Positions 4,257 through 51,653 of a stretch of DNA of 64,000 nt are shown here, one piece after another. This DNA comes from Staphylococcus phage Twort. The stretch lies in the sequence record NC_007021.1; one strand, given 5' to 3'. The translations under genes were made by a program, and so were the position numbers. The first letter of the stretch is position 1, and each line of letters begins with the position of its first letter. The notes beneath the pieces were generated by a model. That model saw only the letters and a program-made list of their open reading frames with translations. It ran no database searches and had not been told where the DNA came from.

Positions 4257-4300
4257 TATATTAAAATTGAATTTATAAAGAAGAAAAAGGAGCTTAAATT

Positions 4301-4939: not shown

Positions 4940-4962
4940 AATAATATAAAGGAGTAATACAA

Positions 4963-5481
4963 TTGGCAACTAAATTTAATCTTTACAAAGATGAGAAACT
5001 TGTTAAAAGTGTAGACAAAGAAGAAATTGGTACAACAGCTATTACAATTGACTCTTTAGAGGCTGACACGGATTACCCTGAAGGTACTTACACTGTATCT
5101 TTCTCTAATGAGTCTGGGGAATCTCAAAAAGTTAATGTTCCTCAATTTAAAACTAAAGCTATTGGACTTATATCTATTACATTAGATGTAGATACTTTAG
5201 ACTTAACAGTTAAAGAAACACATCAATTAAATGTTACTTTTGAACCTAGCACAGCGTCTAATCAGAATGTAAAATATGAATCAGATAGTGAACATGCAAC
5301 AGTTACACCAGAAGGGTTAGTAGAAGCAGTATCCGTTGGTTCTGCAAACATCACTGTAACTTCTGAGGATGGCTCACATACAGATGTAGTAGCTGTAACA
5401 GTAAAAGAACCAATTCCTTCAGAACCTACTAATGTACAGGTATCACCTGGTGAAACTTCAGCAGATATTTCAGTAGAATAG
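4963..5481 (+). CDS. Ig-like protein: N-terminal FN3-like segment plus Big_2 (bacterial Ig-like) domain
   Basis: TTG start with RBS aaaggag; Big_2-like segment LDLTVKETHQLNVTFEPSTASNQNVKYESDSEHATVTPEGLVEAVSVGSANITVTSEDG; same C-terminal PTNVQVSPGETSADIS. Confidence 0.6.
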   Translation: MATKFNLYKDEKLVKSVDKEEIGTTAITIDSLEADTDYPEGTYTVSFSNESGESQKVNVPQFKTKAIGLISITLDVDTLDLTVKETHQLNVTFEPSTASNQNVKYESDSEHATVTPEGLVEAVSVGSANITVTSEDGSHTDVVAVTVKEPIPSEPTNVQVSPGETSADISVE

Positions 5482-5777: not shown

Positions 5778-6051
5778 TACTAATGAAATTAAGAAAGGAG
5801 AGGTTTTTGTGGAACCTATTTTATTAAGAAGTGCGTATGATTACTTAAAAGTTAAGTACGCAATGGAAAATAAAGAAAAGTATGTTGCAGTAGCGTTCGA
5901 TGATATTTCTGTAGAGTCGTTAAATGTTATGAGTATGATGAATGTTATTCAAGACTACTTACACATTTACGGTTATAAGGTATCGGAGTATGGTAAAATG
6001 AATGCGGATGAGGATGTTAAAGGTTACTTATACGAAAGGATTGAAGATTAA
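5773..6051 (+). CDS. hypothetical protein (92 aa)
   Basis: ORF with RBS aaaggagagg. Confidence 0.5.
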   Translation: MITNEIKKGEVFVEPILLRSAYDYLKVKYAMENKEKYVAVAFDDISVESLNVMSMMNVIQDYLHIYGYKVSEYGKMNADEDVKGYLYERIED

Positions 6052-6785
6052 TGCTTATTATTTACAATAAGAACCATATACAATCAAAAGAAGTTCACAA
6101 GCATTTAGGATATAGTGTAAATGAGAATGTTTGTGCTGTAGTAAATAACCAAGATGCTATTAAAGTAGTTAAAGAGTCACAAGATACTGATATTATGTTA
6201 GTAGGGTTTATTTACACAAAAGACCTTGAGTGTTTAGTAGAATTAGGTAAAACTATCTATTGGGTATCTAACATAGGTACTATACCTAGCTTATTTAAAC
6301 ACGTGGATAATAGTAAAATAAAATCTTTATTAGAGCAAGCAGTAGAACTTCTACCAGAAGAATACGGTGTTTTTGAGTACACTAAAGAATCTATGAAGAA
6401 AGCTACTGACTACTATAACTTTAAAAACGATGACTACTTAGAAGAAGTAGACATTGACAAAGACCTTATTGACATGTTAGCTAAAAAATGCTATACTAAT
6501 GGAGACTTACACTTTCTGTATGAATTAGACCCTAAACTTAGATTACCTATTGCATATAGTATTACAAGGGGTAAAGATAAAGCTATTGTAGTTATAGGGT
6601 CACAAACAGCTAGTGATAATGATATGCTTTCTTTCTATGTAAAAGGATATGATGTAAGTAAACTAGCAAATACATTTAATGCAGAATATGAAGTTGGTAA
6701 TAACACCTTTACTACCTTTATTCCTAGTCATATTAATGTAGTAGGTAAAAGTATAAAAAAGTATATGGAGGATTCCGATGTATAA
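6051..6785 (+). CDS. hypothetical protein (244 aa)
   Basis: ATGA overlap with upstream ORF. Confidence 0.55.
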   Translation: MLIIYNKNHIQSKEVHKHLGYSVNENVCAVVNNQDAIKVVKESQDTDIMLVGFIYTKDLECLVELGKTIYWVSNIGTIPSLFKHVDNSKIKSLLEQAVELLPEEYGVFEYTKESMKKATDYYNFKNDDYLEEVDIDKDLIDMLAKKCYTNGDLHFLYELDPKLRLPIAYSITRGKDKAIVVIGSQTASDNDMLSFYVKGYDVSKLANTFNAEYEVGNNTFTTFIPSHINVVGKSIKKYMEDSDV

Positions 6786-8013
6786 GTCAGTAGAAGAAGT
6801 TTATGCAATTGTCTTTGGTGTTTTAGCTAAAGACGAAGGTAAAATTGTAAGTAGCAAGTTTAATAAAATTTTAAATGAAATTGGTATTGATAGAGTTTCA
6901 GTTAATGACTTAAAAGATATTTCTGAAATGATTCATGAAGATGATTATTTAAATGGGTTGAAAAATGACGCTATTTTAGGTAAAGTATCCTTAAAAGACC
7001 TAGAAAGCGTAGAAGGTAAAAAAGTATTCAAAGATAATAACTATCTAGATACAGTTTCTACTTATGTAGTAGAGAACGAGAAAAGATTATCTAACTTACG
7101 TGAATTACGTAAGCACCAAAAAAATGGTGCTTATATGGAAATGCTTATGGAAGGTCTTAAAAAAGATTTAGTTAAGGAACTTAAAAACCCTATTATTGAA
7201 GACCGAGATATTTTACTAGGACATACTGATAAAGAGCTAGTCTTATTATTATCGGATTTTCATGTAGGATTTACTTCTAGGGATTTAGATAATAAGTATA
7301 ACTTTGAGGTTTTAACTAACCGACTAACGAAGTATTTAGATGAAGTTCAGACTATGGTATTAGAGCATGATATTGATGATGTTAGTATTTTCTTTGTAGG
7401 GGACTTAGTAGAGCATATTAATATGCGTGATGTTAACCAAGCATTTGATACAGAATTTACTATGAGTGAACAGATTTCTAAAGGTACTAGATTACTAATA
7501 GACATTATTAAAAACGTATCTGAAATGGTAGATGGTAAAGTTACTTTTGGTATTGTTGCAGGTAACCATGACAGATTACAAGGTAACAAGAATCACAAAA
7601 TTTATAATGATAGTGTAGCTTATATTGTTCTTGATACTCTTTTATGTATGCAAGAAAATGGTGTTATTAATGATATTGATATTATTGATAATAGAGAAGA
7701 TATTTATAAATTCTATCATAAAGTTAATAATACTAATATCTGTGTGACACATGGAGATTCTTTAAAAGGTAAAGGCAAGAATATTAGTAAAGTAGAAGTT
7801 AAGGAAAATATAGATGTATTAGTTACAGGTCATGTACATCACTTTAGTGCAACCCAAGAAGATTTTCATAAAACACATGTAGTAGCTAGCAGTCCTATTG
7901 GATTTAATAATTATTCTAAAGAATTGAATTTATCTAGGACTTCACCTAGTCAGCAAATGCTTCTAGTAGATAGTAGTAAGAACTTAACAATCAAAACAGT
8001 ATTCTTAGACTAG
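6778..8013 (+). CDS. calcineurin-like metallophosphoesterase (SbcD/Mre11-like nuclease candidate)
   Basis: Ordered motifs DFHVG, GDLVEH, GNHDR, THGDS, GHVHH matching the metallophosphatase motif series. Confidence 0.6.
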   Translation: MYKSVEEVYAIVFGVLAKDEGKIVSSKFNKILNEIGIDRVSVNDLKDISEMIHEDDYLNGLKNDAILGKVSLKDLESVEGKKVFKDNNYLDTVSTYVVENEKRLSNLRELRKHQKNGAYMEMLMEGLKKDLVKELKNPIIEDRDILLGHTDKELVLLLSDFHVGFTSRDLDNKYNFEVLTNRLTKYLDEVQTMVLEHDIDDVSIFFVGDLVEHINMRDVNQAFDTEFTMSEQISKGTRLLIDIIKNVSEMVDGKVTFGIVAGNHDRLQGNKNHKIYNDSVAYIVLDTLLCMQENGVINDIDIIDNREDIYKFYHKVNNTNICVTHGDSLKGKGKNISKVEVKENIDVLVTGHVHHFSATQEDFHKTHVVASSPIGFNNYSKELNLSRTSPSQQMLLVDSSKNLTIKTVFLD

Positions 8014-8022
8014 GAGGATTTT

Positions 8023-8388
8023 ATGAGTAATTTATTAATTATTTGTATCGTATACGCAGTAATTGTGACTATTAATGTAGTTACTAAGGTTTTAGAAATT
8101 TGGAGTTTTGAGAAGCGTAGTGTTGCTATGGGTAAAAGCCCATTTAGTAACTTTATTTACTACTACGAAATCATTCCTTATACAGTAGGATTAATTACCC
8201 TTGTAGTAATTTCCTATTTTAGCTACATGTTACCTAACCCAAATACAGTAGGTCACATTATTGTATTTACAGGATTAGTTGCTTTCTTTTACTTCTTATC
8301 AGGAATTATTACTGTATTTATTATATCAGTAGTAGAGGCAAATATTGTACGTAAAAGAACTAAGGAAAACGAGAGTCAAGACGAATAG
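8023..8388 (+). CDS. small membrane protein (3-4 TM)
   Basis: 121 aa, hydrophobic segments. Confidence 0.5.
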   Translation: MSNLLIICIVYAVIVTINVVTKVLEIWSFEKRSVAMGKSPFSNFIYYYEIIPYTVGLITLVVISYFSYMLPNPNTVGHIIVFTGLVAFFYFLSGIITVFIISVVEANIVRKRTKENESQDE

Positions 8389-8404
8389 GTCTTGACTTTT
8401 TTTA
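8375..8404 (+). terminator. rho-independent terminator
   Basis: gtcaagac-gaatag-gtcttgac then T7. Confidence 0.7.
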
Positions 8405-8440
8405 TTATGTATGATAAATTAATAAAGAGGTGGTAAAAAA

Positions 8441-8977
8441 ATGGACTTTTCATTTACAAGTTTTGAAGATGAACGAATTGCAATGCGTATATCTGAAGGT
8501 ATTTATTATTTTAAGGAAGAGCCTATCTATTGGATAGAGCATATTGAAGAAAATTCAGATGAGTATGTTTTTGTATACGCTATACAAGATAAAAAAGAAG
8601 AAAAGCCACAAAAGGCTTATAAGGTAGAGGAAGTAACTAAGACATTAAAAGGTGGGACATACCTTAGTAATAGGATTAAAAGCCTTATACCTGTTAAAAA
8701 GCAATATAAAAAAGTATACAAAGAGCCTTTGTTTGTTGCTAACATTATTCCTAGTGGTATTGGTATAGATACTATTACTGGAAGAAGTGGTAAAGGATTC
8801 TTTGAAAGACAACGTGAAGAACGTATCACTACATCTAAAGGTGTTACTGTAAAAGGTGGAGATTATACAGGGGTGTTTATTACATTAGAAAATATTAAAT
8901 GGAATCGGTCTTACACACCCTTAGAAAGTGTTGTAGAATATTATAAACAAACTAAAGAAGGTAGAATTAATGTCTGA
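8441..8977 (+). CDS. hypothetical protein (178 aa)
   Basis: ORF with RBS. Confidence 0.5.
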   Translation: MDFSFTSFEDERIAMRISEGIYYFKEEPIYWIEHIEENSDEYVFVYAIQDKKEEKPQKAYKVEEVTKTLKGGTYLSNRIKSLIPVKKQYKKVYKEPLFVANIIPSGIGIDTITGRSGKGFFERQREERITTSKGVTVKGGDYTGVFITLENIKWNRSYTPLESVVEYYKQTKEGRINV

Positions 8978-9716
8978 AATGTTTTATGAGCAAGATATTA
9001 AAGATTTAATTAGGACTAAAAAACATTTATTTCATAAGGATGAGATAACAAGTAATATAGATGATATTAAAATATTTAATGAAAAGGTAATTTGTCAAGG
9101 AAAGTGTAGAACCGATTGTTTAGTACTAGACCGTAACGGTACTGTTATGGGAATAGAAATAAAAACTGAGAGGGATTCTACACAAAGATTAAATAAACAG
9201 CTTTACTATTATAGCTTAGTATGTAAATATGTTTATGTATTTTGTCATGATAAACATGTCCCTAAGGTAGAAAAAATACTAAAAGAACATAAACATGACC
9301 ACGTAGGTATTATAAGTTACATTAATTTCAGAGGTAAACCTACAGTAGGTAAATATAAACAAGCAACACCCTCACCTTTCAGAAGTCCTTACCATACTTT
9401 AAATATTCTATGGAAGTACTCTTTACTAACTATGCTAAGAATCATACGAGACTATACAAAGTACTACAACAAGAAAGTTACATTCAATAAGAATGGTCAC
9501 CAAAATGAATTAGCAACAAAAAGCACACAATCTTATAGAATGAAAAAACCTGCTATTATAAACCAAATTATTGGTTTTATAGGGGTAGAAAAAACTTACC
9601 AGTTATTCTGTAGAGTTGTTATTTATGGTTATTCAGATAGATGGAAATTGATAGATGAGACATTTTTTGATGTAGTTAAGAATGGGGTGATTGGTATTTA
9701 TGAAGAAGAAAGATAA
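8970..9716 (+). CDS. hypothetical protein, possible PD-(D/E)XK nuclease fold
   Basis: CLVLDRNGTVMGIEIKTERD fits D-x(n)-E-x-K arrangement; weak. Confidence 0.35.
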   Translation: MSEMFYEQDIKDLIRTKKHLFHKDEITSNIDDIKIFNEKVICQGKCRTDCLVLDRNGTVMGIEIKTERDSTQRLNKQLYYYSLVCKYVYVFCHDKHVPKVEKILKEHKHDHVGIISYINFRGKPTVGKYKQATPSPFRSPYHTLNILWKYSLLTMLRIIRDYTKYYNKKVTFNKNGHQNELATKSTQSYRMKKPAIINQIIGFIGVEKTYQLFCRVVIYGYSDRWKLIDETFFDVVKNGVIGIYEEER

Positions 9717-10119
9717 ACCAAAAAGAATATGGCACCAACCAGTAAACTTTGCGCCTACAAATAACTTAGCGGGTGCAAACCCTACATTTTTCCCTAAAAA
9801 AGGGCAACAACCTAAGGAATCTAAGGGATATGAGTATCGTATACAATTTATAAAGAGGTTTGACAATGTAACGAATACTGATGTTAGTATGCAAAAGAAG
9901 TATATGTTAAATCTTATTAGTAGGGACTTGAATTTACCTGAAAAATATATTACACTAACACAAAAAGGTAAGAAAAAAGAAGATATTTTACATACAAATA
10001 GAATATATTACGTTTATAGGTCTAAAAAACTTATAGGTAAGTGTGCTATACAAGAACAAAGAACGTTTACAACGACAAACTTATTGTTTATTTTTAAATT
10101 AAGGAAAAGGAAGAGGTAA
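9691..10119 (+). CDS. hypothetical basic protein (142 aa)
   Basis: ORF; lysine-rich. Confidence 0.45.
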   Translation: MVFMKKKDKPKRIWHQPVNFAPTNNLAGANPTFFPKKGQQPKESKGYEYRIQFIKRFDNVTNTDVSMQKKYMLNLISRDLNLPEKYITLTQKGKKKEDILHTNRIYYVYRSKKLIGKCAIQEQRTFTTTNLLFIFKLRKRKR

Positions 10120-10120
10120 T

Positions 10121-10927
10121 ATGGAGATTATTAATAAAGAAACAACTATTAGTGTAAAAACATTATTAAAGAAATTAAAGAAAGAACCTACTATTGTAGG
10201 GGTAGGTTATGGTTCTGAGTTATTTCCCTACCAACTATTAACGGAGCCTTATGTAGAGATAGAGGAATCGGAAGATGGTTTTCTTAAGATTTATAATAAA
10301 GTATTTGTTCCTCATTTTAGAGTAACAGACTTTAATAATTTTAGTATTGTCCTAGAAAGTGCTATGCTAGGTTACACTACTAAGTTACAAGAACCTAGTA
10401 AGAATACTTTTGATATTATGACTACGTATAAGGAAGATAAGACTGTACAAGAGTATGCTGTTTCTAGCGTATTTGAAGAACCCACTATCACTAAATCTTC
10501 TTTTACTATTAATAAAAAAAGATTTACTATATATAAGATTACAGAAACACAAATTACGTCTTTAGACTTTAAAGATTTTACACATACAATGTACTTAGTA
10601 ACTACCGAAGAACAGAATTTTGAGGTGTCTAAGTTACTTAAAGGTAGGTTAAGTAAAACAGAAACACATCATTTACTAAACTTATTCTCAGGTACTAAGG
10701 TATTACCTGAAACAGTTATTGCTGTATCTTCTTCAAGAAGTAATGTAAGTTTTGATATGTACGAACCTAATGGGTTTATTCTTATTTTCAAAGCTAACAT
10801 TTATGAATTAGGTTCTAAAAACCATAATATTTCCTTCCATAAAGACCTTATTAAAGGTAGTACTTTAGAAGATAATAGTCTTACATTACACATTAAAAAT
10901 AAACATGATTTACAATTATTTTGGTAA
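10121..10927 (+). CDS. hypothetical protein (268 aa)
   Basis: ORF directly abutting upstream gene. Confidence 0.5.
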   Translation: MEIINKETTISVKTLLKKLKKEPTIVGVGYGSELFPYQLLTEPYVEIEESEDGFLKIYNKVFVPHFRVTDFNNFSIVLESAMLGYTTKLQEPSKNTFDIMTTYKEDKTVQEYAVSSVFEEPTITKSSFTINKKRFTIYKITETQITSLDFKDFTHTMYLVTTEEQNFEVSKLLKGRLSKTETHHLLNLFSGTKVLPETVIAVSSSRSNVSFDMYEPNGFILIFKANIYELGSKNHNISFHKDLIKGSTLEDNSLTLHIKNKHDLQLFW

Positions 10928-11265: not shown

Positions 11266-11994
11266 ATGGCTAGAAAAAAGATGAGAAATAAAAATGATAA
11301 GAATCTTAAAGTTGTACCAGAGAAAAAGAGTATATTAGTAGAACTTTACGAAAATAAGTTATTACGTACTAAGGTAGATAATGCAATTGATGAAGACTTA
11401 GGTTATGATTATATTATAGAACTATGTAAAGAATATGGATTAGAATTATCTAAATCTGCTATTAGTCGTTATAAAACAAAACGTAGAGAAGCTATACAAA
11501 ATGGTTGGGATTTAGGAGAATATATTGATGGTAGAAAGAAAAATAATGTTTCTTCCATTGAAGACAAAGAAGTAGATGTAGCTAGTAAAGTAGACCCAAC
11601 ACATCCTTTCGAAGTAGCTAAGAAAAAAACGCAAGACATTTATGATGACATTGAAGTACTTGATAGCATTATTCAAGCAGGTGCTTTAGGATTACAATAT
11701 GTAGACACCGTAGACCCTGCACTTGCATTAAAAGCAATGGAAACTAAGCATAAGATTACAGGTGGACAACTACAAGGAATGAGTTTAGTTGGTATGCGTG
11801 AGTTGCTAGTTAAACAAAATGCTAGGGATACAGCAATTACACAAGTAATCTTAGAATATATTCCAGAAGAAAAACATGAAGAAGTCATGGAACGTTTAGA
11901 AGAAACTGAAAAAGAGTTCTATGAAAACTTAGACCTGGATGAAGAAGATATGAGATTAAAACAAGCGTTAGATAGAGTAGGTTACTCTATTTAG
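11266..11994 (+). CDS. hypothetical protein (242 aa), basic N-terminus, acidic C-terminus
   Basis: ORF with RBS aaaggaag. Confidence 0.5.
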   Translation: MARKKMRNKNDKNLKVVPEKKSILVELYENKLLRTKVDNAIDEDLGYDYIIELCKEYGLELSKSAISRYKTKRREAIQNGWDLGEYIDGRKKNNVSSIEDKEVDVASKVDPTHPFEVAKKKTQDIYDDIEVLDSIIQAGALGLQYVDTVDPALALKAMETKHKITGGQLQGMSLVGMRELLVKQNARDTAITQVILEYIPEEKHEEVMERLEETEKEFYENLDLDEEDMRLKQALDRVGYSI

Positions 11995-12009
11995 AATAGG
12001 AGAAGTTAT

Positions 12010-12474
12010 ATGGTAGAAGAAATCGTATTTAAACAGTTAGAAGAGGCAAAGCCTATTAAAGACCTTGGGACAATTATCAGGTACTTAGAAGAAGGTAAAG
12101 TACTACTTGTTAGACAAGAAAATCAAGGTGACATTATTGTAAAGTTAACGGACAATAGTACAAATGGTCATAAGATGACTTATATTAGTAGAGACATTAA
12201 AGAAGAATCTAGTTATTATAAAAGACATTGGGCTCCATTCGACATTAGTATTAATGCATTCCTTGCTTTTGATGTTTACTTAGCTGAGGATGTGAATAAG
12301 TATAATTATAATAATAAATTTAATATTAAGGATATTGTTGAGTTTGTAGCAGGAGACAATAATGACATTGCTTATATACATGATGTGTATACTGATGGTA
12401 CTAAGTTTATGTACAGTTTAACTGGAGAAGAAAGATTATTTGAAGAGTCAGAATTACGTAAAATTAATCGTTGA
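12010..12474 (+). CDS. hypothetical protein (154 aa)
   Basis: ORF with RBS ggagaag. Confidence 0.5.
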   Translation: MVEEIVFKQLEEAKPIKDLGTIIRYLEEGKVLLVRQENQGDIIVKLTDNSTNGHKMTYISRDIKEESSYYKRHWAPFDISINAFLAFDVYLAEDVNKYNYNNKFNIKDIVEFVAGDNNDIAYIHDVYTDGTKFMYSLTGEERLFEESELRKINR

Positions 12475-12531
12475 CATAAGTAAAAAGTTATGATAAAGTA
12501 TATGTATACTTATTAAAGGAGAGATAGTATT

Positions 12532-12963
12532 ATGATTATTTACTTAAACAATGAGGAAAAGAATTTAGTAAAGGAAAATAAATATACACCATTAGAAAGT
12601 AAGTTTAAAACGAAAAAAGAAAAAGACATTGTAGAAATGTATCGTAAAGGTCATCCAGTTAATGACATTTGTAATGTACATAACATTAGTATGGGTATGT
12701 TATATACTGTTGTTAATAACCATAAACTAGGTAAACGTAATGTTACTAAAGGATTATTAAGTAAAATTAAACATATACTGAATAATAAAAATAAACTAGA
12801 GAACTTGATTAATGATTATGGTAAATTAACGAATAAGGAAATCTATAGTAAGTATCAAATTCATAAGAATGGTTTGTATTATATCTTAGACTTGTATAAC
12901 ATTGAAAGAAAACAAGACACTAAAGATGAGGTATTATCAGATAACATTGTAATTGAAGAATAG
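12532..12963 (+). CDS. hypothetical protein with possible HTH
   Basis: IVEMYRKGHPVNDICNVHNISMGMLYTVV resembles small HTH. Confidence 0.45.
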   Translation: MIIYLNNEEKNLVKENKYTPLESKFKTKKEKDIVEMYRKGHPVNDICNVHNISMGMLYTVVNNHKLGKRNVTKGLLSKIKHILNNKNKLENLINDYGKLTNKEIYSKYQIHKNGLYYILDLYNIERKQDTKDEVLSDNIVIEE

Positions 12964-12972
12964 GGTGATAAT

Positions 12973-13647
12973 ATGAGTTACCAAGAAAGATTAAAAGAGA
13001 TTAGGAAACAAAGTGATACACATAAAGAAATTAATAATAGTAAGAAGAAATATACAATGGATGAGTTAGAGCTATCTTTATTTGATAGGGATAGTGATGT
13101 TATTAAACCATTTACAAGTATTAGTAAAGATGATGAGATTAGCAGTAATGACTTATTTATTGCAACCCTACCTAATAATATTGTCCTTGCTGATGGAACT
13201 ACTTTAGAAAAAGGTCAGTATATTGGTAATAGTATGGGTAAATTATCAGACCTTGAAGATATGGAAGATTCGGGTATATCTTCTAAAACCCTCTATGAAA
13301 ATGGCCATAGAATTAACTTACTTGCTGTTGTTAATAATCCTAAGGCAGTATACACTCAAAAAGATTTAGTTGTGGATATTAAAGATGGCGTAGAAGTTAG
13401 AGACGTAACAACTAAAAGCTCTTCTGTAATTTCTAAACAAAAAATAGATTATATATCTCTTGTAGATGAATCTTACTTCGATAACCTTATAGATGATGTT
13501 CTTAAAGATTACAATAACTTATCTAATCCTAATACCTTGCTTAAAAGATATATTAAAAACAAAGAAATGTTAGGTGAAGGTAAAAAAATGATTTATTGTT
13601 CATTGCTAGATAAAGAAGTATTGGTTGTAGGTGGGAAAGATGAGTAG
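12973..13647 (+). CDS. hypothetical protein (224 aa)
   Basis: ORF. Confidence 0.5.
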   Translation: MSYQERLKEIRKQSDTHKEINNSKKKYTMDELELSLFDRDSDVIKPFTSISKDDEISSNDLFIATLPNNIVLADGTTLEKGQYIGNSMGKLSDLEDMEDSGISSKTLYENGHRINLLAVVNNPKAVYTQKDLVVDIKDGVEVRDVTTKSSSVISKQKIDYISLVDESYFDNLIDDVLKDYNNLSNPNTLLKRYIKNKEMLGEGKKMIYCSLLDKEVLVVGGKDE

Positions 13648-15178: not shown

Positions 15179-16288
15179 ATGATAACGAAAAAAGTTAGAC
15201 TTAAACCTACTAAACAACAGGAGTTAAAATTACGTAAATCAGCAGATATAGCACGATTTATATATAATTGGACTTTAGCAAAACAACAAGAAAATTATAA
15301 ACAAGGCAATAAATTTATACAAGATTCTGTGTTAAGAAAAGAAATAACACAATTAAAGAAAACTGAAGAGTTTAGATGGTTAAATGAAGTAAGTAATAAT
15401 ATTCCTAAGCAAGCAGTTAAAGATGCTTGTAATGCTTACAAAAGATTTTTTAAAAAACAATCTGGTTTTCCTAAATTTAAATCTAAAAAGAAAACAAGAC
15501 CTAGTTTCTATAATGATACACAAAAACTAAAAGTAAAAGAAAAATCAGTATTATTAGAAAAAGTGGGTTGGGTTAGAACATCTGAACAATTACCTGTAGG
15601 TACTAAGTACTACAATCCTAGAATCACTTTTGATGGTAAATATTGGTATATAAGTGTTTCTATTGAAGAAGAAAATAAATATGAAGAACTAACAAACGAA
15701 TCTTTAGGTATTGATTTAGGAATAAAAGAATTAGCCGTATGCTCTGATGGAAGTATTTATGAAAATATTAACAAAACAATAAGAGTTAAAAAACTAGAAA
15801 AACGATTACGTAGATTGCAACGTAAGGTATCTCGTAAATACCAAAATAATAAAGAAGGGAGTACCTTTGTCAAAACTTGCAATATTATAAAACTTGAAAA
15901 ACAAATTAAACTCTTACAACGAAGATTGTCTAACATTCGTAAAAACTATTTACATCAAACAACAACTTCTATAGTGAAAACCAAACCTAGAAGAATTGTT
16001 ATAGAAGATTTGAATGTAAGTGGTATGATGAAGAATAGACACTTAGCTAAAGCAATACAAAAACAAGGATTCTATGAGTTCCGTAAACAACTAGAATATA
16101 AGTGTGGAAGAAAAGGTATAGAACTTGTTATTGCAGATAGATTCTTTCCTTCTAGTAAAACATGCTCTAATTGTGGTAACATCCACAAAAACTTAAAACT
16201 ATCAGATAGAATATTTAAGTGTGACTGTGGTTTTAGTATTGATAGAGACCTTAATGCTAGTATTAATTTAGCTAATTATAATATTTAG
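15179..16288 (+). CDS. tnpB: TnpB (IS605/IS607-family OrfB) RuvC-like RNA-guided endonuclease
   Basis: RuvC-I GIDLGIKELAVCSDG, RuvC-II RIVIEDLNVSGM, zinc finger CSNCGN...CDCGF, RuvC-III DRDLNASINLA; 369 aa. Confidence 0.85.
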   Translation: MITKKVRLKPTKQQELKLRKSADIARFIYNWTLAKQQENYKQGNKFIQDSVLRKEITQLKKTEEFRWLNEVSNNIPKQAVKDACNAYKRFFKKQSGFPKFKSKKKTRPSFYNDTQKLKVKEKSVLLEKVGWVRTSEQLPVGTKYYNPRITFDGKYWYISVSIEEENKYEELTNESLGIDLGIKELAVCSDGSIYENINKTIRVKKLEKRLRRLQRKVSRKYQNNKEGSTFVKTCNIIKLEKQIKLLQRRLSNIRKNYLHQTTTSIVKTKPRRIVIEDLNVSGMMKNRHLAKAIQKQGFYEFRKQLEYKCGRKGIELVIADRFFPSSKTCSNCGNIHKNLKLSDRIFKCDCGFSIDRDLNASINLANYNI

Positions 16289-30348: not shown

Positions 30349-30554
30349 GAAAGGAATTGATATTTATGATTATGACAGTAGGACGAGCTAAAGAATACGG
30401 AAACAAAATGGTTGAGCTAGGACATTGTGACCTTGCAGGGCAATGGTTCGATATTGCAGACGACATTCGAGTTATTGGTGTTGAATGTTTTAATAAAGAT
30501 TGGTTAAAACAAAAAGAAAAAGAAACATTAGAAATTATTAAAGAGGGAAAATAA
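30336..30554 (+). CDS. hypothetical protein (72 aa)
   Basis: ORF overlapping upstream. Confidence 0.45.
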   Translation: MVTIRKELIFMIMTVGRAKEYGNKMVELGHCDLAGQWFDIADDIRVIGVECFNKDWLKQKEKETLEIIKEGK

Positions 30555-30568
30555 TCCCTCTTTTTTAT
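30542..30568 (+). terminator. rho-independent terminator
   Basis: agaggga-aaataa-tccctct then T6. Confidence 0.75.
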
Positions 30569-31123: not shown

Positions 31124-31726
31124 TTATTCGAAAGATTCTTCTATAATTTCTAGTAATGTATTACATTCAATTCTATCTAATTCATTATAAGATTTTAACT
31201 GATAGTAGCAATTGTATACAATTTCATCAAAGGCTTTTGCTTTTTTTTCTTGTAGAGTGGGCTGTATATTCATTGTAGTTTCATTATCCGTTTCCTTTCT
31301 AGGTTCTTCTAAAAATTCTTTAGCATTTTCCTTACCTATAGTTACTTCTAGTATATTATAATAATAATCGGTCTTTTGGTTTAAGTTGTAATTATCATTG
31401 TAATCATTCCAATCCACGTAGATATATTCATGTGTTTTATCCTCGTAGATAATATCTATAGCTGTAATGTCATGGAAGTTTTCTACTCTCTCGTACACTG
31501 TAATCTCTCCGTCTAGGCTATCAAAAGTTAACTCTTTCGGGTTATTGATAAGAAGTCCTAAGTGGCTACAATGTTTTGTTTTATCTGTGTAGAAATTTCC
31601 TTCTGAAGAGGGTTGAGATGTAAAGGTTTCCGTAATTCCTTCTATATATAAGTAGTCAATATCTTTTGGAGCTAGACGAATAACATCACAATTTTCTAAT
31701 ACTAAATCAATATAATTTATATTCAT
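31124..31726 (-). CDS. hypothetical protein (200 aa)
   Basis: ORF with RBS aggagg on minus strand. Confidence 0.55.
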   Translation of the reverse strand: MNINYIDLVLENCDVIRLAPKDIDYLYIEGITETFTSQPSSEGNFYTDKTKHCSHLGLLINNPKELTFDSLDGEITVYERVENFHDITAIDIIYEDKTHEYIYVDWNDYNDNYNLNQKTDYYYNILEVTIGKENAKEFLEEPRKETDNETTMNIQPTLQEKKAKAFDEIVYNCYYQLKSYNELDRIECNTLLEIIEESFE

Positions 31727-31785
31727 AGTAATTTTCCTCCTAATTCCATAATGATGGTAAAATGATTTTAAAGTTATTTAAAATC

Positions 31786-32040
31786 CTATTTTTTATGTTT
31801 ACTTAGTTCTTTTAATACATGATTTTTTATCTTACTGTTTTTACGTTTATCTTCCATTACCTTTTCAGTATAGTTAGTGAAATCCTGAAAGTCTTTATTT
31901 ATCTTTACTTCAAACTCTTTAAATTCTTCTCTATCTTTCTTTACAAGTTTACACATTAATACAAAGAATACTGTATATAGAATAGAGATTATAATGAGTA
32001 CTATGATTGCTACCATACCTAAAGATACTAAATTACCCAT
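31786..32040 (-). CDS. membrane-anchored protein (N-terminal TM)
   Basis: LGMVAIIVLIIISILYTVFFVLM hydrophobic. Confidence 0.5.
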   Translation of the reverse strand: MGNLVSLGMVAIIVLIIISILYTVFFVLMCKLVKKDREEFKEFEVKINKDFQDFTNYTEKVMEDKRKNSKIKNHVLKELSKHKK

Positions 32041-32121
32041 AATTATTCCTCCTTTAAATTAATTATAGTGTATATTGGAAAGTATGTCAATAGGTAAATA
32101 AAAAACTAAGGAAAAAATTCC

Positions 32122-32343
32122 TTAGTCCTCTATCGTTAGTTCATGAATCCTAACTACATCTATACCGATTACAAAATCTTTAACAAATTGTTGCCCAAAG
32201 AAAGAGTCTTGTTCTTCTTCATATCCTTCTTCTGTAAGTCTTTGAACAAGTTTTTCTTTATCTTTATAGACCTTATCTTCCCTATAGTGATAATTTTCTT
32301 CATAAGGTTCACAATTGTCATGCTCTACTTGATATAGTTTCAT
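32122..32343 (-). CDS. hypothetical acidic protein (73 aa)
   Basis: ORF. Confidence 0.45.
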   Translation of the reverse strand: MKLYQVEHDNCEPYEENYHYREDKVYKDKEKLVQRLTEEGYEEEQDSFFGQQFVKDFVIGIDVVRIHELTIED

Positions 32344-32353
32344 AATATTTACC

Positions 32354-32725
32354 TCACTTAATATCTTTAATTAATTCTTTGATTAGTTGTAAGGTAGGTT
32401 CTTGGTCTACATCTACAACTAATGTATCTAACTTCTCTAATACTTTTTCTTTTATATACTTATTCTCTTTTGCAGGTTCTACAAGCTCTATAATCTTATC
32501 TAACTTTTCTTCAAATATGCGATTGTTTTGATTTGTTGTTTTACAAAAATCACCTAAGATAAAGCTATTTACATAGTCAGTCTCTTTACTAACATCGTAA
32601 ATATATGAAACTTTATAATTAATGTCATTTACCGTTCTTCTGGTAGACTCTGAAGATGTATATAATTCTTTAACTTTATAAAATGTGTCGGATATATATT
32701 TAGCATATGTTTCATTAAACTTCAT
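32354..32725 (-). CDS. hypothetical protein (123 aa)
   Basis: ORF; overlaps upstream gene end. Confidence 0.5.
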   Translation of the reverse strand: MKFNETYAKYISDTFYKVKELYTSSESTRRTVNDINYKVSYIYDVSKETDYVNSFILGDFCKTTNQNNRIFEEKLDKIIELVEPAKENKYIKEKVLEKLDTLVVDVDQEPTLQLIKELIKDIK

Positions 32726-35018
32726 ATAAAAATTCCTTTCTTAGCCCTACAATATTGTCCCTATTTTCTTTTAGATAATTTTTATCTTGCTTTTCTAGCC
32801 AATAGTAGAATTCTCTTAGGGTTTTATCTTTTTGTAGGATATATTGTTTAGGTCTATTTCCACTAGACTTAGCTACAGAAGAAATTAAACCTCTCATATA
32901 CTTCCAGTTGTTATAATATTCTAATTTTTGTTTGACCATAAATTTATTGCTGTCCTCAAAGACATAACCTTCAATTTCTTCCTTGTTATCCTCTGTAACA
33001 AAGTTATAGAACTCTACCCATGTATTTAAAGTAGTAACTTGTTTTTTGTAAGGTAATCCTAAGTACTGTGCTGTAGATTTTACTTCTTTGTAAGGAAGTT
33101 TATTAAACTGTAATTCATTCTTAATAATGTCGAGTAAAACAATTTTGTTTTCGTTGTATTCTATGATATGGGGGTCGTTTTCAATATCAATAACCTCAAA
33201 TACAAATGTGGAGTTAGAATATTTTAATGTTTCTTTTAAAGTATTTAAGTCAATTTTTGAATTTTCTACAATGGTTTTAAACATTAGCGCATATTCATTG
33301 TCTTTAGATAAATGAGTGCTAGATTTGCTTGCGTAGATAATCTCATCTCTCTTTTCGTCATAGAACATTAAGCCTAAGAAACCATTTTCTTTTTCATAAA
33401 CATCTACTGGGAATGATAAAGTGTCAGGCAAGTTTTCTAACTTAGTTTCGTTCATTTCATTGATGTTGAAAAATTTAGGATACCCTCTTCCTACAACTGT
33501 ATGGTCATCTTCTCTAATAAACAGTCCTCTTGCGGTAACAGATAATTGGTTCCAGTTCTTTTTAGTAAAGGCATGTTTAGTAAAATTGACGGATACAATA
33601 TCATCATGAGTAGGTTTTACTTTAATTGTTTTTCTATCCTCTTTTGCAATATTTAAATAGGTTTCTACAGTTAGCTCTGGGTCTATTTCTTTTAAATGGT
33701 CTCTAGTATCTAATAACAATTTTTCATTATATACTGGGTTTTTGATTTCGTGAGGCATGATAGAGTTATCTTCATCAATAGTAACAGCTCTTAAGTGTCC
33801 TCCTTTTTCTACACGTCCTTCTAGGTTAATAGAGTCTTTATACGTGTCTAAAGGTTGTCTGTATAAGTTTCTATGACCATGAATCTGTATAGTGTCAGAA
33901 TTATCCCATTCAGAATCAATATCAAATTCATAACCGCCAACACCATTAATAATTTGGTGAGTTGATACCATATTTAAATTATCTAACATTTGAGGCATAA
34001 TACCACCATGTGTTATTACATAATCCTGTCCTTTATATGTGAAATATGCAAGTTGTTGTAATTTTTCTACTACGGTCTTAATTCTTTTTTGTGTAATACC
34101 AAACTTAATAAAACTTCTAAGAGTTGAAATAAAACCCCTAGCTCGAAACACTTTCATTGCCTTATTGAAAAACTCATCTTTATCTTCATAAATATCTGTT
34201 AATTCTTCGAGTTCCTGATTATCTAAGTAGATAAAGTTTCTTAGATGTCGTTCGTGATTGCCCTCTAATAAAATAACATTTGGCTGTTTACAAATCAATT
34301 CTAGGTATTCAAAAACTTCTTTTGTTTCTATCCCTCTATCGAAATAATCTCCAACAAAAATAAATAATTCATTTGGATTATCTAAAATTTTATTTACGGA
34401 AGCAAAAGCAGATAAAACTGTAAAGCATGAATGAACGTCTCCAATTACATGAATCTTATTGTAGTGGTCGACCTTCATAAAATCTTTATCCCATTTTAAT
34501 GTATCTAATAAGTTATCTTTATCTACACTCTTAGCATAGCTTGGGATATTTTCATGTTGCAATCTATCATACATATTTTCAATAACTTCTTCTGGGACTT
34601 GCTTATGAGACTCTCTGTTTTTATTTCTTTCTAATAAAGTATCTAAGTCCTCTTCCAATGTTACAACATAAGTTCTATATCGGTATTTTCTTGCAAGTTT
34701 TTCATATTTTTTGATTAGTTTACTTGTTGAGTGAGTAGCATCAATAACAGTAAAATCTCCACGAATCATACGCTGTTCTAAAATTTCAAGTAAAAGTGTC
34801 CATATATAATTATCATTTTCTTGTGTAGTTACTTGTTGTCCTTTTGTGTTGTAAACTGGTGAGCCACATTGCGTTCTTAAAACATCTGGAGAAAGCGTGA
34901 ATTGTTCTAGTCCATTTTCTTTGATGTAGGTGGATTTACCTACACCAGGAACTCCCCGTAAAAGTACTAATTGTCTCATATTAACAGTCCTCCCTACCTT
35001 CTTTGAGATAGTTCTCAT
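32715..35018 (-). CDS. trifunctional Pnkp-like RNA repair enzyme: P-loop polynucleotide kinase + calcineurin-type phosphoesterase + nucleotidyltransferase (RNA ligase) domain
   Basis: Walker A LLRGVPGVGKST; metallophosphatase motifs GDVHS, GDYFDRG, GNHE; ligase motifs KENG (I), FVFEVID (III), EGYVFE (IV), KFMVKQK (V). Confidence 0.7.
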   Translation of the reverse strand: MRTISKKVGRTVNMRQLVLLRGVPGVGKSTYIKENGLEQFTLSPDVLRTQCGSPVYNTKGQQVTTQENDNYIWTLLLEILEQRMIRGDFTVIDATHSTSKLIKKYEKLARKYRYRTYVVTLEEDLDTLLERNKNRESHKQVPEEVIENMYDRLQHENIPSYAKSVDKDNLLDTLKWDKDFMKVDHYNKIHVIGDVHSCFTVLSAFASVNKILDNPNELFIFVGDYFDRGIETKEVFEYLELICKQPNVILLEGNHERHLRNFIYLDNQELEELTDIYEDKDEFFNKAMKVFRARGFISTLRSFIKFGITQKRIKTVVEKLQQLAYFTYKGQDYVITHGGIMPQMLDNLNMVSTHQIINGVGGYEFDIDSEWDNSDTIQIHGHRNLYRQPLDTYKDSINLEGRVEKGGHLRAVTIDEDNSIMPHEIKNPVYNEKLLLDTRDHLKEIDPELTVETYLNIAKEDRKTIKVKPTHDDIVSVNFTKHAFTKKNWNQLSVTARGLFIREDDHTVVGRGYPKFFNINEMNETKLENLPDTLSFPVDVYEKENGFLGLMFYDEKRDEIIYASKSSTHLSKDNEYALMFKTIVENSKIDLNTLKETLKYSNSTFVFEVIDIENDPHIIEYNENKIVLLDIIKNELQFNKLPYKEVKSTAQYLGLPYKKQVTTLNTWVEFYNFVTEDNKEEIEGYVFEDSNKFMVKQKLEYYNNWKYMRGLISSVAKSSGNRPKQYILQKDKTLREFYYWLEKQDKNYLKENRDNIVGLRKEFLYEV

Positions 35019-35286
35019 ATTTTTTCTTTAAAGCAGGATTTTTGCTAGATAATATAAATTCAAGTATCTCTTTATCCGTGAAAATTTTTGTATATTCTTC
35101 TTCCCATTCTACATCTTTATAATTGTGTTCTCCTGTTTCTTCAAGATTGTTTAAAGCCATCTCAGCATATATCTTCGCATCAATTAACCATCTTGTATAC
35201 ATGCTTGAAGGGTCTAAAAACTTTATTTGATTTTCATAATTAATAATATCTGTTTTTAATTTAAGTTTTGCTTGTTCTTTATTCAT
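34981..35286 (-). CDS. hypothetical protein (101 aa)
   Basis: ORF between phosphatase and Pnkp-like gene. Confidence 0.5.
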   Translation of the reverse strand: MNKEQAKLKLKTDIINYENQIKFLDPSSMYTRWLIDAKIYAEMALNNLEETGEHNYKDVEWEEEYTKIFTDKEILEFILSSKNPALKKKYENYLKEGREDC

Positions 35287-35543
35287 TATAGCACCTCATA
35301 CGTTTTATGGAATATTTCAGGTTTAACTGGATAGAATTCACCATGTACGCCTTGGACAATATAATCATTCAATCTAGCCTCTAAATTGCCTTCTAAAGTT
35401 TTTATAATTAAATACCCTTGATGCCTTGAAACGCAATACCTAACTTGACCATTAGACCAATTCTCTATTTCTTCTGCACTTTCCAAATCTGTAAACTGAA
35501 CAAATTCAATTTCTACTGGTTTCTTCCTAGCTTTCTGAATCAT
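35286..35543 (-). CDS. hypothetical protein (85 aa)
   Basis: ORF. Confidence 0.5.
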   Translation of the reverse strand: MIQKARKKPVEIEFVQFTDLESAEEIENWSNGQVRYCVSRHQGYLIIKTLEGNLEARLNDYIVQGVHGEFYPVKPEIFHKTYEVL

Positions 35544-36247
35544 TCTAACTCCTCCAATTTAATAAATGGTAATTCTATATCTCTAAAAACTGCTCCTACA
35601 TCACACAACAACATATCATTATGTTTTTCTACCTGACCACTACTAGTAGGTGTATGCCCACATACGTGTATAAAACCATCTTTTCTAGGTTGAAAATCCC
35701 TAGACCACATTAACTGGTCTACTGTTTGTCCTTCTACAGGTTTCCAACTTACACCACCAGAATGAGTAAATATATATTTATCTTTCTTATAATACCTCCT
35801 ACAATTAGTCATAAACACTTTAAACTTCCTATAATCTTCAGATTCTTTAAGTTTATTTAGTTCATTTTTAATAAAATCATAATCGTTCCTTAAAACATCT
35901 TCTACAATGTTACATGTTAAAGTTGCAATATCAACACCGTAAGAGTCAAGTGTTTCCATGCAATATCTTGATAGCCACTCAATATCATAAATACCTAATC
36001 GGTCTATATTCTCTATAATCCTATATAACTCATCATCATGATTTCCTAGTAGGGCTACTACATTTTCATCATTTAATAATAAATCAAATAGATAGTTCAC
36101 AACATCCTTAGACCTATCACCTCTGTCTATATAATCTCCTAAGAATACTATTGTATCTTCTGGTTTACGCTCTTCAATTATTTTATTCATTAGTCTCATA
36201 AGTTTATCATACTCTCCATGTATATCTGGGATTACAAATATGCTCAT
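35540..36247 (-). CDS. lambda-phosphatase-like Ser/Thr (PPP-family) metallophosphatase
   Basis: IPDIHGEY, GDYIDRGDRS, GNHDDE in correct order/spacings. Confidence 0.75.
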   Translation of the reverse strand: MSIFVIPDIHGEYDKLMRLMNKIIEERKPEDTIVFLGDYIDRGDRSKDVVNYLFDLLLNDENVVALLGNHDDELYRIIENIDRLGIYDIEWLSRYCMETLDSYGVDIATLTCNIVEDVLRNDYDFIKNELNKLKESEDYRKFKVFMTNCRRYYKKDKYIFTHSGGVSWKPVEGQTVDQLMWSRDFQPRKDGFIHVCGHTPTSSGQVEKHNDMLLCDVGAVFRDIELPFIKLEELE

Positions 36248-36370
36248 AAATCTTCCTCCCTACTGTTGTTTCATTAACTAAAGAAACTCTACAGCATTTT
36301 CTTTATTAACACTCACTTTAAATTCTTTATATTCCTCTCTCCAGCACTAAATCACTATACTTAATATTTT

Positions 36371-37118: not shown

Positions 37119-37180
37119 AACAACCCCTCCTTAATTACATTATATAACAGAAAAGAACCCGTGTCAACAGGTTCTTTAAA

Positions 37181-40365: not shown

Positions 40366-40785
40366 TCTCATTTCCTCCTAATTGATTATATACTTAGTAT
40401 AAAGGATAATAACTAGATTGTCAACTATAAAAATAAAAAAAGTACCTACAAATTAATGTAGATACTTATACTATAATTATAGAATTTTAGGTGTGTACAT
40501 GAAGGATAACTCATGTAGGGTTTAGTAGTAAGATACAAAGCGTCTACCACGCAACATACAACACCTCTTGTATGTTATTATATACGTACTGGAAGAAGTT
40601 ACCAGTAGGAACCTACAGTCATATACAAAGCCTATGCCAGGCAATATATGGTATATCTCATATATCAGGTATAATACCTTATAATGATTATCTTGTAACC
40701 TATAACTTCTGATAATTAGGGTTTTATAATAATTACTGTATAAGTAACTATAACCTATAAGTTTTTTGCATGCTAGGGGCTATAA

Positions 40786-40857
40786 TGGACTCTGTAGGGA
40801 TTGAACCTACACTCCAACGCTTATGAGGCGTTTGCTTTACCATTAAGCTAAGAGTCC
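40786..40857 (-). tRNA. tRNA-Met/Ile2 (anticodon CAU)
   Basis: Minus-strand read GGACTCTTAGCTTAATGGTAAAGCAAACGCCTCATAAGCGTTGGAGTGTAGGTTCAATCCCTACAGAGTCCA: 7-bp acceptor, D-arm, anticodon loop CTCATAA, T-loop GGTTCAATCC. Confidence 0.8.
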
Positions 40858-40866
40858 ACAACAGTA

Positions 40867-41058: not shown

Positions 41059-41448
41059 CTAACTCTTGTCAATACTTTTATTCCATTTAGAGTTTGGTTT
41101 AATTAAACCTTTTTCTATTAGAGAAGTATTAAGTTGTTTATATTCAGTACCCTCTTTATACCATACTCTAGCTAGGTATCTACCAAATACATCACTTTTA
41201 TATGTCTGGACAATAATGTCTTTATTTAAAACTTTACTCTGTGTAAATTCTGTAGCTTCTTTATAATTATTTGCTCCTCTTTCTGGTGTATCTACATCTA
41301 TTAACCTAACTCTTTGTTCTGAGTACATGCGCATCCCATGGTCTAGTGTAATATCAATAGTATCTCCATCAATAACCTTTGTGCACTTTGCTTTGAACAT
41401 ATATAATTGTTCGTCCAAATTACTAAAGTCCATTTTTATATTCCTCAA
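41059..41448 (-). CDS. staphylococcal-nuclease (SNase/thermonuclease)-like nuclease
   Basis: VIDGDTIDI...RVRLIDVDTPE motif, R/Y-rich tail. Confidence 0.7.
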   Translation of the reverse strand: MRNIKMDFSNLDEQLYMFKAKCTKVIDGDTIDITLDHGMRMYSEQRVRLIDVDTPERGANNYKEATEFTQSKVLNKDIIVQTYKSDVFGRYLARVWYKEGTEYKQLNTSLIEKGLIKPNSKWNKSIDKS

Positions 41449-50900: not shown

Positions 50901-51653
50901 CTACCATTTAAAATTATCAGCATAGTTTGATAGTTCTGAACGGAAATTACGAGTGAGTGTATGTTCTCTGGATTTTTCATACCCTCTAAAATACTCTAAA
51001 TAAGGAACAAAACCTGATTTACTCTCATTTTTCAAATCTATCTGTACGCTAGAGCCAATACATAGCGCTTTATTTCCTTTTTTAAATCGAGTGAGTGTTT
51101 TCTTTATATCATTACGCTTAAAGTTTTGAGTCTCATCTAAAATCATTGTACTAGAAATATTAACGCCACGTAAATGTATATGGCTTACTGCATGAATCCA
51201 ACAATCATCAAAAGATTTTTCGTTAAAGTTTTCTAATGTTTCTTCTGCCATTTCATAAATAGCTCTTTCAGGTATAACCCCAAGTTCTAATAATGCATCA
51301 TATAAAGCCCCAAAGTAAACGCTCTCTTTTGAAAATTTTGAGCCTGGGAGTGCCCCGATGTCATCTGAAACAGGTGAAATAATATAATACATTGTCTTTC
51401 CTTTATTTAAGTATTCTGCATAAGCCAAAGCAATTGATAGAAAAGATTTCCCAGTTCCTGCTCGTGAGTCTGACCATATAATCTCTACTTCATCATCAAA
51501 AAAATCTTCTGCAAAATCTAACTGTTCATCACTAGCCTTGCTTAAAAAATCATGGAATACACTATGTTGTACCATGTTATACTTTACATTTGGATAATCT
51601 CTTAATTTGTACTCTAATTCTTTAGCCGTTTTTGTCATGGTTACATTTACCAA
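50901..51653 (-). CDS. phoH: PhoH-like ATPase
   Basis: Walker A SRAGTGKSFLSIALA and Walker B ILDETQNF typical of PhoH family. Confidence 0.75.
   Translation of the reverse strand: MVNVTMTKTAKELEYKLRDYPNVKYNMVQHSVFHDFLSKASDEQLDFAEDFFDDEVEIIWSDSRAGTGKSFLSIALAYAEYLNKGKTMYYIISPVSDDIGALPGSKFSKESVYFGALYDALLELGVIPERAIYEMAEETLENFNEKSFDDCWIHAVSHIHLRGVNISSTMILDETQNFKRNDIKKTLTRFKKGNKALCIGSSVQIDLKNESKSGFVPYLEYFRGYEKSREHTLTRNFRSELSNYADNFKW

Follow-up and report, generated by a model that had tools for sequence, protein, structure and literature searches.

A 64,000-nucleotide (nt) stretch of the genome of Staphylococcus phage Twort (NC_007021.1), hereafter the window, holds a minus-strand open reading frame (ORF) at 32715..35018 that encodes 767 amino acids (aa) when counted from its first ATG, and the question raised by this locus is whether a single phage polypeptide can both heal and seal broken RNA. 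The gene is annotated already: it is known as 'RNA ligase' in GenBank, its 754-aa product matches the database entry 'RNA ligase [Staphylococcus phage Twort]' at 100% identity, and PHROG 8238 'RNA ligase' spans the entire 754-aa protein. An earlier reading made from the letters of the window (the sequence-only reading) described the product as a Pnkp-type kinase-phosphoesterase-ligase without a Hen1 partner. The sequence comparisons reported here, together with analogy to characterized enzymes, indicate that the Twort protein is probably a self-contained, single-chain heal-and-seal enzyme, in which a healing half of the bacterial Pnkp type is joined to a sealing half of a different type. All coordinates are window positions, residues are numbered on the 754-aa protein unless marked as 767-aa (the first-ATG ORF), and codon coordinates were verified by script.

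All motifs quoted in the sequence-only reading are present in the order kinase, calcineurin-type phosphoesterase, and ligase, and the hidden Markov model searches that it proposed matched each of the three domains: Pfam AAA_33 at aa 17-154 (E 4e-22), Metallophos at aa 188-393 (E 3e-16), and RNA_lig_T4_1 at aa 496-702 (E 3.6e-45; all three in 767-aa numbering). The N-terminal P-loop polynucleotide 5'-kinase and the central binuclear metallophosphoesterase of bacterial Pnkp are both features of the Twort protein, and these two modules are closest to those of Clostridium thermocellum Pnkp (CthPnkp). In an alignment of 38 diverse full-length sequences, sharing 36-92% identity with Twort, the P-loop Lys15 and the Pnk-type residues Asp32, Arg35, and Arg122 of the kinase are invariant, as are the metal ligands and catalytic residues of the phosphoesterase (Asp181, Asp211, Arg215, Asn241, His242, His324, and His369). 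The identity of the first module as a polynucleotide kinase is upheld by these residues and by its proximity to CthPnkp. The match to TIGR04075, the NCBIfam equivalog of bacterial Pnkp, reached 71.4 bits against a cutoff of 750 and was restricted to aa 15-264. Therefore, the designation "Pnkp-type" holds for the kinase and phosphatase halves, and it fails for the ligase, which resembles Trl1 instead of Rnl4. An AlphaFold2 model of the whole protein, built on the alignment, has a mean predicted local distance difference test (pLDDT) value of 91 and a predicted template modelling score of 0.78; its weak stretch is a 10-residue block of the linker, aa 421-430 (mean pLDDT 66).

The sealing half was found to be closest to the fungal tRNA ligase Trl1, the Rnl6 clade, as judged by sequence, profile, and predicted fold, and its sequence does not place it with the Hen1-dependent Rnl4 type. 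Profile matches were obtained with the Trl1 ligase domain (Trl1-LIG; 9qw7, E 2e-28, and 6n67, E 8e-18) and with T4 Rnl1 (E 7e-12), the last of which was limited to the adenylyltransferase core. When the ligase domain alone was compared with the PDB at E <= 10, the only matches were five Trl1-LIG sequences. A Foldseek search with the AlphaFold2 model gave seven top PDB matches that are all Trl1-LIG (E ~2e-15), with target template modelling (TM) scores of 0.64-0.68, except for the longer LIG-KIN chain 9r3w, which scored 0.43; the scores for T4 Rnl1 and Rnl3 were 0.54-0.56 and about 0.47, respectively. No chain of Rnl4, the ligase of bacterial Pnkp, was among the profile, PDB, or Foldseek matches listed. 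The ligase residues Lys530-x-Asn-Gly, Lys552, Glu595, Glu670-Gly671, and Lys683/Lys685 are invariant in the 38 sequences, and the active-site residues are also kept in 144/144 of a second set, namely new representatives of 50%-identity clusters from an exhaustive ligase-domain search (Asn532, 142/144). The lysine adenylylation site proposed by the sequence-only reading, Lys530 of KENG, is thus conserved throughout this set and lies in a domain that matches the ligase fold of Trl1-LIG. Core features of the Rnl6 type (Arg484, Lys502, Phe503, Lys530, and Gly533) are present in 143-144 of the 144 representatives, the first three being N-subdomain residues of the Rnl1-like kind, whose counterparts in CthTrl1 are Arg99, Lys120, and Phe121.

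Trl1-LIG founded the Rnl6 clade because of its distinctive helical C-domain (PMC6379707). In the phage protein, the invariant Trp692 and the residues Lys693, Arg696, and Arg747 of the C-terminal helical module align to CthTrl1 Tyr333, Arg334, Arg337, and Arg389. Arg747, in 'IVGLRKEF', corresponds to the structural Arg389, in 'IIKLRNDF', and is kept in 128/144 cluster representatives; the anchors lie 51 residues apart in the phage protein, against 52 in CthTrl1. An hhalign comparison of the two C-domains gave a local match on the last helix only (E 8e-6, probability 83%), and a profile of the C-domain alone found no match in the PDB; both results are caveats on this alignment. Homology of the phage C-domain to that of Trl1 is tentatively favored. 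The T4 Rnl1-type C-domain, which confers specificity for the tRNA anticodon loop, is not the type found in the Twort ligase. As a sealing half of the Trl1 type has its own C-domain, it should need no Hen1-like activator. No Hen1 or other methyltransferase was detected in a Pfam scan of the 68 window ORFs of at least 100 aa, which bears out the earlier statement that a Hen1 partner is absent, and the same scan yielded no Tpt1/KptA, 2H/LigT, or RtcB. Seven sampled homolog neighborhoods likewise contained no Hen1-type gene and no Tpt1/KptA, the only methylase domains there being a SpoU RNA methylase (L003) and DNA methylases (L008).

From these features we infer three activities that would act on RNA in the following order. 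The N-terminal kinase would phosphorylate the 5'-OH end of the broken RNA. The phosphoesterase, predicted to be a binuclear enzyme of the Mn2+/Ni2+ type, would open the 2',3'-cyclic phosphate to give, by analogy with CthPnkp, a 2'-phosphate/3'-OH end first, from which the phosphate would perhaps then be removed. Finally, the ligase would be adenylylated on Lys530 and transfer the adenosine monophosphate to the 5'-phosphate, so that the ends could be joined. An involvement in the processing of DNA ends or nucleotides for phage DNA metabolism, instead of RNA repair, is very unlikely. The CthPnkp kinase also phosphorylates DNA 5'-OH ends (PMC1920235), PDB 4mde is a DNA complex, and the gene lies among nucleotide-metabolism and replication genes in several phages; however, the ligase belongs to the Rnl1/Rnl6 lineage of RNA ligases without an oligonucleotide-binding (OB) fold or DNA ligase domain, and several of these phages encode separate DNA ligases. 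Still less probable is that it acts on proteins as a Ser/Thr phosphatase or kinase, the annotation given in phages PT1-1 and LSA2308, or serves as a non-catalytic factor of virion or tail-fiber assembly comparable to the second role of T4 gp63. Database names such as 'putative serine/threonine protein phosphatase' and the label of PHROG 562, 'RNA ligase and tail fiber protein attachment catalyst', point in this direction, as does an 'RNA ligase' (g064c) found in Stab phage virions (PMC7077315), a weak indication that counts for the repair reading as well, since this protein may belong to another family. In contrast, the Pnk-specific Asp32/Arg35/Arg122 and the invariant ligase active site imply selection on polynucleotide chemistry, among structural relatives of the phosphoesterase module the RNA phosphatase of CthPnkp is closer than the lambda or PPP protein phosphatases, and the gene resides among non-structural genes, outside the virion module.

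Regarding the 3' end that would be sealed, the His227/Arg334/Arg337 triad of Trl1 binds a sulfate that is taken as a mimic of the 2'-phosphate, and it enforces the 2'-phosphate requirement in fungi (PMC6379707, PMC11404444, PMC12440814). In profile alignments, His604, Lys693, and Arg696 of the phage protein occupy the positions of CthTrl1 His227, Arg334, and Arg337, with one conservative Arg-to-Lys change, and they are near-invariant in the 144 representatives (His604, 144/144; Lys693, 140, with Arg in 3 more; Arg696, 142). On the same profile, T4 Rnl1, an enzyme that leaves 2'-phosphate ends unsealed (PMC12440814), lacks a His at position 604, and its alignment stops at motif V, so that the pocket residues have no aligned counterparts. 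CthPnkp heals broken tRNA in vitro by converting the 2',3'-cyclic phosphate to a 2'-phosphomonoester that is then removed; its products are sealed by T4 Rnl1 and poorly by Trl1-LIG, and the H189D mutant, which halts at the 2'-phosphate, does function together with Trl1-LIG (PMC1920235, PMC2190708). As CthPnkp passes through a 2'-phosphate intermediate, the combination of a Pnkp-type healer and a Trl1-type sealer would be chemically coherent in either a T4-like or a yeast-like route. In a T4-like route, which is possible by analogy, the 3' end would be fully dephosphorylated and 2'-OH/3'-OH ends would be sealed; the retention of His183 and of the whole monoesterase residue set in Twort counts for this route. 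In a yeast-type repair, which the pocket residues and the CthPnkp intermediate raise as a tentative alternative, the ligase would need or strongly prefer a 3'-OH/2'-phosphate end and seal the 2'-phosphate intermediate of the phosphoesterase. The junction 2'-phosphate left behind would block re-cleavage by transesterifying nucleases, a Hen1-like 'immunization' without methylation, and a phosphomonoesterase or a host enzyme might later strip it.

Natural variation in the phosphoesterase bears on the same choice. The His of the GDxH motif, His183 in Twort (codon 34431-34433), occupies the position of CthPnkp His189, which is critical for the Mn2+ monoesterase and not for the diesterase (PMC2190708). 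It is replaced by Gln in 23/106 full-length family representatives, with the other metal ligands retained in 105/106, and the Gln-bearing members may be natural variants restricted to cyclic phosphodiesterase activity. This would suit a yeast-type repair, but H189Q reduces the diesterase activity of CthPnkp (PMC2190708). Further points against a yeast-type repair are the full monoesterase set of Twort, the Lys that replaces one pocket arginine, and the lack of significant C-domain homology with the C-domain-only profile. In addition, plant Trl1 requires the 2'-phosphate, yet both arginines are absent (PMC12440814), and the triad is therefore an imperfect predictor of this requirement. Also against a yeast-type repair, Tpt1/KptA was not found in the window ORFs scanned or the seven neighborhoods; a tblastn search with Escherichia coli KptA gave 98 phage records, in the listed organism tally of which Staphylococcus, Lactobacillus, Brochothrix, and Fusobacterium are absent, and there was no Trl1-like ligase in the kptA neighborhood of phiCD211. 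It is a doubtful proposition that a large family of phage and prophage enzymes of Firmicutes performs eukaryote-style, 2'-phosphate-dependent ligation, with a phosphoesterase that stops or pauses at the 2'-phosphate and a junction 2'-phosphate that replaces Hen1 methylation as protection. Were it true, the phage enzyme would be the first ligase of the Rnl6 clade outside eukaryotes, a natural source of bacterial 2'-phosphate RNA, and hence a candidate reason why bacteria keep Tpt1/KptA, for which it would supply the substrate, as well as a plausible ancestor of the eukaryotic tRNA ligase.

The enzyme is no oddity of one staphylococcal phage: it belongs to a large annotated family. At least 80% of the protein is held by 110 phage records, and in the exhaustive search for which the ligase domain alone was the query, the clusters at 50% identity numbered 557 with E <= 1e-30 and 2212 with E <= 1e-3. 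The carriers are large phages and prophages of Firmicutes and Fusobacterium, including Staphylococcus Herelleviridae and Sextaecvirus, SPbeta-like Bacillus phages, Brochothrix A9, and Lactobacillus phages. No neighbor gene is conserved across the seven homolog loci, in which LigT (L004), SpoU with barnase/barstar (L003, Desmospora), and Acb2/Gad2 (L006, Paenibacillus agilis) were each sighted once. On the Paenibacillus agilis contig, Acb2/Tad1-hairpin and Gad2 anti-defense genes at 5912-7114 precede the ligase homolog at 8001-10316 in what resembles an anti-defense island. In the Desmospora activa chromosome (11605-13000), the three-domain gene is located less than 3 kb from a SpoU-family RNA 2'-O-methyltransferase and a barnase/barstar pair; this single sighting echoes the Pnkp-Hen1 logic of repair together with 2'-O-methylation, here beside a ribotoxin, and may be coincidence.

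For the phage, the most likely use of a self-contained heal-and-seal enzyme would be an anti-defense one, which is plausible by analogy and by one suggestive gene neighborhood. The enzyme would rejoin RNAs, tRNAs among them, that metal-independent ribonucleases of the host have cut. Candidate nucleases are those that attack anticodons (for example PrrC), HEPN RNases, of which Csm6 in the type III-A CRISPR system of staphylococci is one, and toxins of the MazF type; all of them leave ends of exactly the kind that the enzyme should heal. In favor of this reading, the Paenibacillus phage or prophage homolog lies directly downstream of Acb2/Tad1-type and Gad2 anti-defense genes, and large phages and prophages account for nearly all carriers of the family. 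Several points weigh on the other side. The anti-defense neighborhood is 1/7 of the sampled contexts, no cognate host nuclease was identified, and no biochemical or genetic data on any family member were found in the literature searched. In other proteins, the folds of the kinase and the phosphoesterase also serve reactions on DNA ends and on small molecules. Only a truncated copy is left in some Silviavirus phages, and the function is therefore dispensable in some hosts. An RNA repair enzyme whose chief role lies elsewhere, either in protecting lysogens from interbacterial RNase toxins or in RNA processing and recycling during infection, is an unlikely alternative: many members reside in SPbeta-like prophages, and apparently chromosomal, non-prophage copies occur in Thermoactinomyces and in Desmospora, there by barnase/barstar and the SpoU methylase. 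Nevertheless, the strictly lytic phages Twort and SEP1 carry the gene too, and the barnase linkage was observed once only.

Regarding the truncated copies, phage Remus (Silviavirus) has at 3552-4994 a 480-aa derivative that corresponds to Twort aa 280-763 (767-aa numbering) and takes in the ligase and half of the phosphoesterase. Its annotation is '2,3-cyclic nucleotide 3-phosphodiesterase', and two HNH endonuclease genes are found just downstream. Other Staphylococcus aureus myoviruses have still shorter remnants of the gene.

In Twort, the ligase gene (Table 1) is the fourth from the 3' end of a leftward block that runs from 31124 to about 57600 and meets a rightward block at a bidirectional terminator-like hairpin (30540-30563). 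Its true start is probably the ATG at 34979, because GGGAGG lies 9 nt upstream, the TAA of the upstream gene is at 34981-34983, and the database entry has 754 aa. The consensus sequence at 37167-37139 is a likely candidate promoter of a leftward unit with the phosphatase and ligase genes, a suggestion that comes from the consensus match only; such a unit would hold ORFs of 185 and 60 aa, the phosphatase of the lambda type, the two small ORFs, the ligase gene, and an ORF of 123 aa.

Table 1. Window coordinates of the kinase-phosphoesterase-ligase gene, its modules and key residues, and features around it.
Feature	Position	Strand	Details
Kinase-phosphoesterase-ligase gene	32715..34979	-	754 aa; stop codon 32715-32717; GenBank name 'RNA ligase'
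Module 1, P-loop polynucleotide 5'-kinase, aa 1-160	34500..34979	-	Key residues Lys15 (34935-34937), Asp32, Arg35, Arg122
Module 2, binuclear metallophosphoesterase, aa 172-413	33741..34466	-	GDxH Asp181/His183, GDxxDRG Asp211/Arg215, GNHE Asn241/His242, His324, His369
Linker, aa 414-449	33633..33740	-	Holds lowest-confidence stretch of AlphaFold2 model
Module 3a, ligase adenylyltransferase domain, aa 450-686	32922..33632	-	Rnl1/Trl1-type N-subdomain Arg484, Lys502, Phe503
Ligase motifs		-	I Lys530-Glu-Asn-Gly (Lys530, 33390-33392), Ia Lys552, III Glu595, IV Glu670-Gly671, V Lys683/Lys685
Ligase His604	33168-33170	-	Within module 3a
Module 3b, all-helical C-domain, aa 687-754	32718..32921	-	Trp692, Lys693 (32901-32903), Arg696 (32892-32894), Arg747 (32739-32741)
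Shine-Dalgarno-like GGGAGG	34989..34994	-	9 nt 5' of ATG at 34979; read from sequence
Perfect sigma-70 consensus TTGACA-17-TATAAT	37139..37167	-	Pattern scan, 12/12; upstream of ligase gene
Perfect sigma-70 consensus TTGACA-17-TATAAT	32062..32090	-	Pattern scan; downstream of ligase gene
Small ORF, 101 aa	34981-35286	-	Between phosphatase and ligase gene
Small ORF, 85 aa	35286-35543	-	Between phosphatase and ligase gene
Lambda-phosphatase-like metallophosphoesterase, 235 aa	35540..36247	-	Pfam Metallophos E 2.6e-19; PHROG 246 'NinI-like Ser/Thr phosphatase' E 6e-64
tRNA-Met(CAT)	40785..40858	-	ARAGORN; sole tRNA in window

The lambda-phosphatase-like nature of the upstream neighbor, as called in the sequence-only reading, is confirmed by its Pfam and PHROG matches. 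It shares 38% identity over 78 aa with the internal phosphoesterase of the ligase protein, and the two small ORFs in between match PHROG 419 and PHROG 7534, both of no known function, and nothing in Pfam above threshold. A general functional coupling of the ligase to a lambda-type phosphatase was rejected, as SEP1 has the ligase and no annotated phosphatase within 5 kb either side; the two genes are paired only in Twort and in the cassette of Sextaecvirus. This cassette of ~5 kb (~31300-36265), comprising the lambda-type phosphatase, the two small ORFs, the ligase gene, and the 123-aa ORF, is 85-86% identical in nt sequence to the Staphylococcus chromogenes siphoviruses PT1-1 and PT94 (Sextaecvirus). 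Since Twort is a Herelleviridae myovirus, and the ligases of other Herelleviridae are just 57-62% identical to its own in protein sequence, the likeness points to recent horizontal exchange between unrelated phages. In many Kayvirus-type phages of S. aureus, the phosphatase gene has a counterpart with about 80-82% nt identity, and in several of these records the joined match also takes in a tRNA-Met gene. Staphylococci have an abortive-infection system based on a Ser/Thr kinase (Stk2), and it is a matter of speculation that a phage Ser/Thr phosphatase could counter it. Lambda Ser/Thr phosphatase, which has the same PPP/metallophosphoesterase fold and motifs as this neighbor, possesses 2',3'-cyclic phosphodiesterase activity (PMC2190708).

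Among other features of the window, the tRNAs that the sequence-only reading placed at 40.8 kb amount to one, tRNA-Met(CAT), so that the plural was a little generous. A TnpB-like ORF of 369 aa at 15179-16288 (+), with HTH_OrfB_IS605, OrfB_IS605, and Cas12f1-like TNB domains, looks like an IS605/IS200-family element or a relative of RNA-guided nucleases within a lytic phage genome; in a Streptococcus suis element, an ORF with a Cas12f1-like TNB domain is immediately upstream of the ligase homolog. At 50901-51653 (-) is the gene of a PhoH-like ATPase, about 16 kb from the ligase gene, whereas in PT1-1 PhoH is two genes downstream of the ligase, and in Stab phage the two genes are numbered close, g064c and g066c (PMC7077315). 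Other nucleic-acid enzymes of the window are encoded at 6778-8013 (+), a 411-aa ORF that is the third with a metallophosphoesterase domain; at 2015-3262 (+), a recombinase resembling RecA; and at 41059-41448 (-), a homolog of staphylococcal nuclease (SNase).

T4, bacterial Pnkp-Hen1, and fungal Trl1 provide well-understood examples of heal-and-seal RNA repair. The family described here combines a Pnkp-type healer and a Trl1-type sealer in one chain, with no partner gene found, and it is common (the 557 clusters above). The general concept that phages repair RNA by means of kinases, phosphatases of the calcineurin-like type, and ATP-dependent ligases is already present in comparative-genomics reviews (PMC7824862, PMC9503650); no characterization of the fusion, or placement of its ligase in the Rnl6 clade, was found in the literature searched, and an earlier mention is possible. 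In that literature, the Rnl6 clade is described from eukaryotes only, and a prokaryotic-virus branch would bear on the origin of the eukaryotic tRNA ligase. As Twort-like staphylococcal phages are candidates for therapy, a built-in counter to RNA-cleaving defenses would affect their host range.

The closest known systems each share a part of this design. In the tRNA repair pathway of T4, Pnkp (PseT) and Rnl1 (gp63) act together, and a 3'-phosphatase of the DxDxT haloacid dehalogenase fold is fused to the kinase, whereas the 3'-end module of Twort is a calcineurin-type metallophosphoesterase. In the Pnkp1-Rnl-Hen1 complex of Capnocytophaga gingivalis, the ligase is a separate polypeptide and Hen1 is needed; in Twort, all activities would reside in one fused chain, and no Hen1 was found. 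Bacterial Pnkp, represented by CthPnkp, has the kinase and metallophosphoesterase in common with the phage protein, but its C-terminal adenylyltransferase is of the Rnl4 type and needs the Hen1 N-domain to seal, a feature that the phage protein does not have. Fungal Trl1 (CthTrl1-LIG 6n67; C. glabrata 9qw7) shares about 21-25% identity with the phage ligase, in which one pocket Arg is changed to Lys, and no Tpt1 is associated with the phage gene in the window or the sampled neighborhoods. The order of modules differs as well: fungal Trl1 is composed of a ligase, a GTP-dependent kinase, and a 2H cyclic phosphodiesterase, whereas the phage protein runs from kinase through metallophosphoesterase to ligase.

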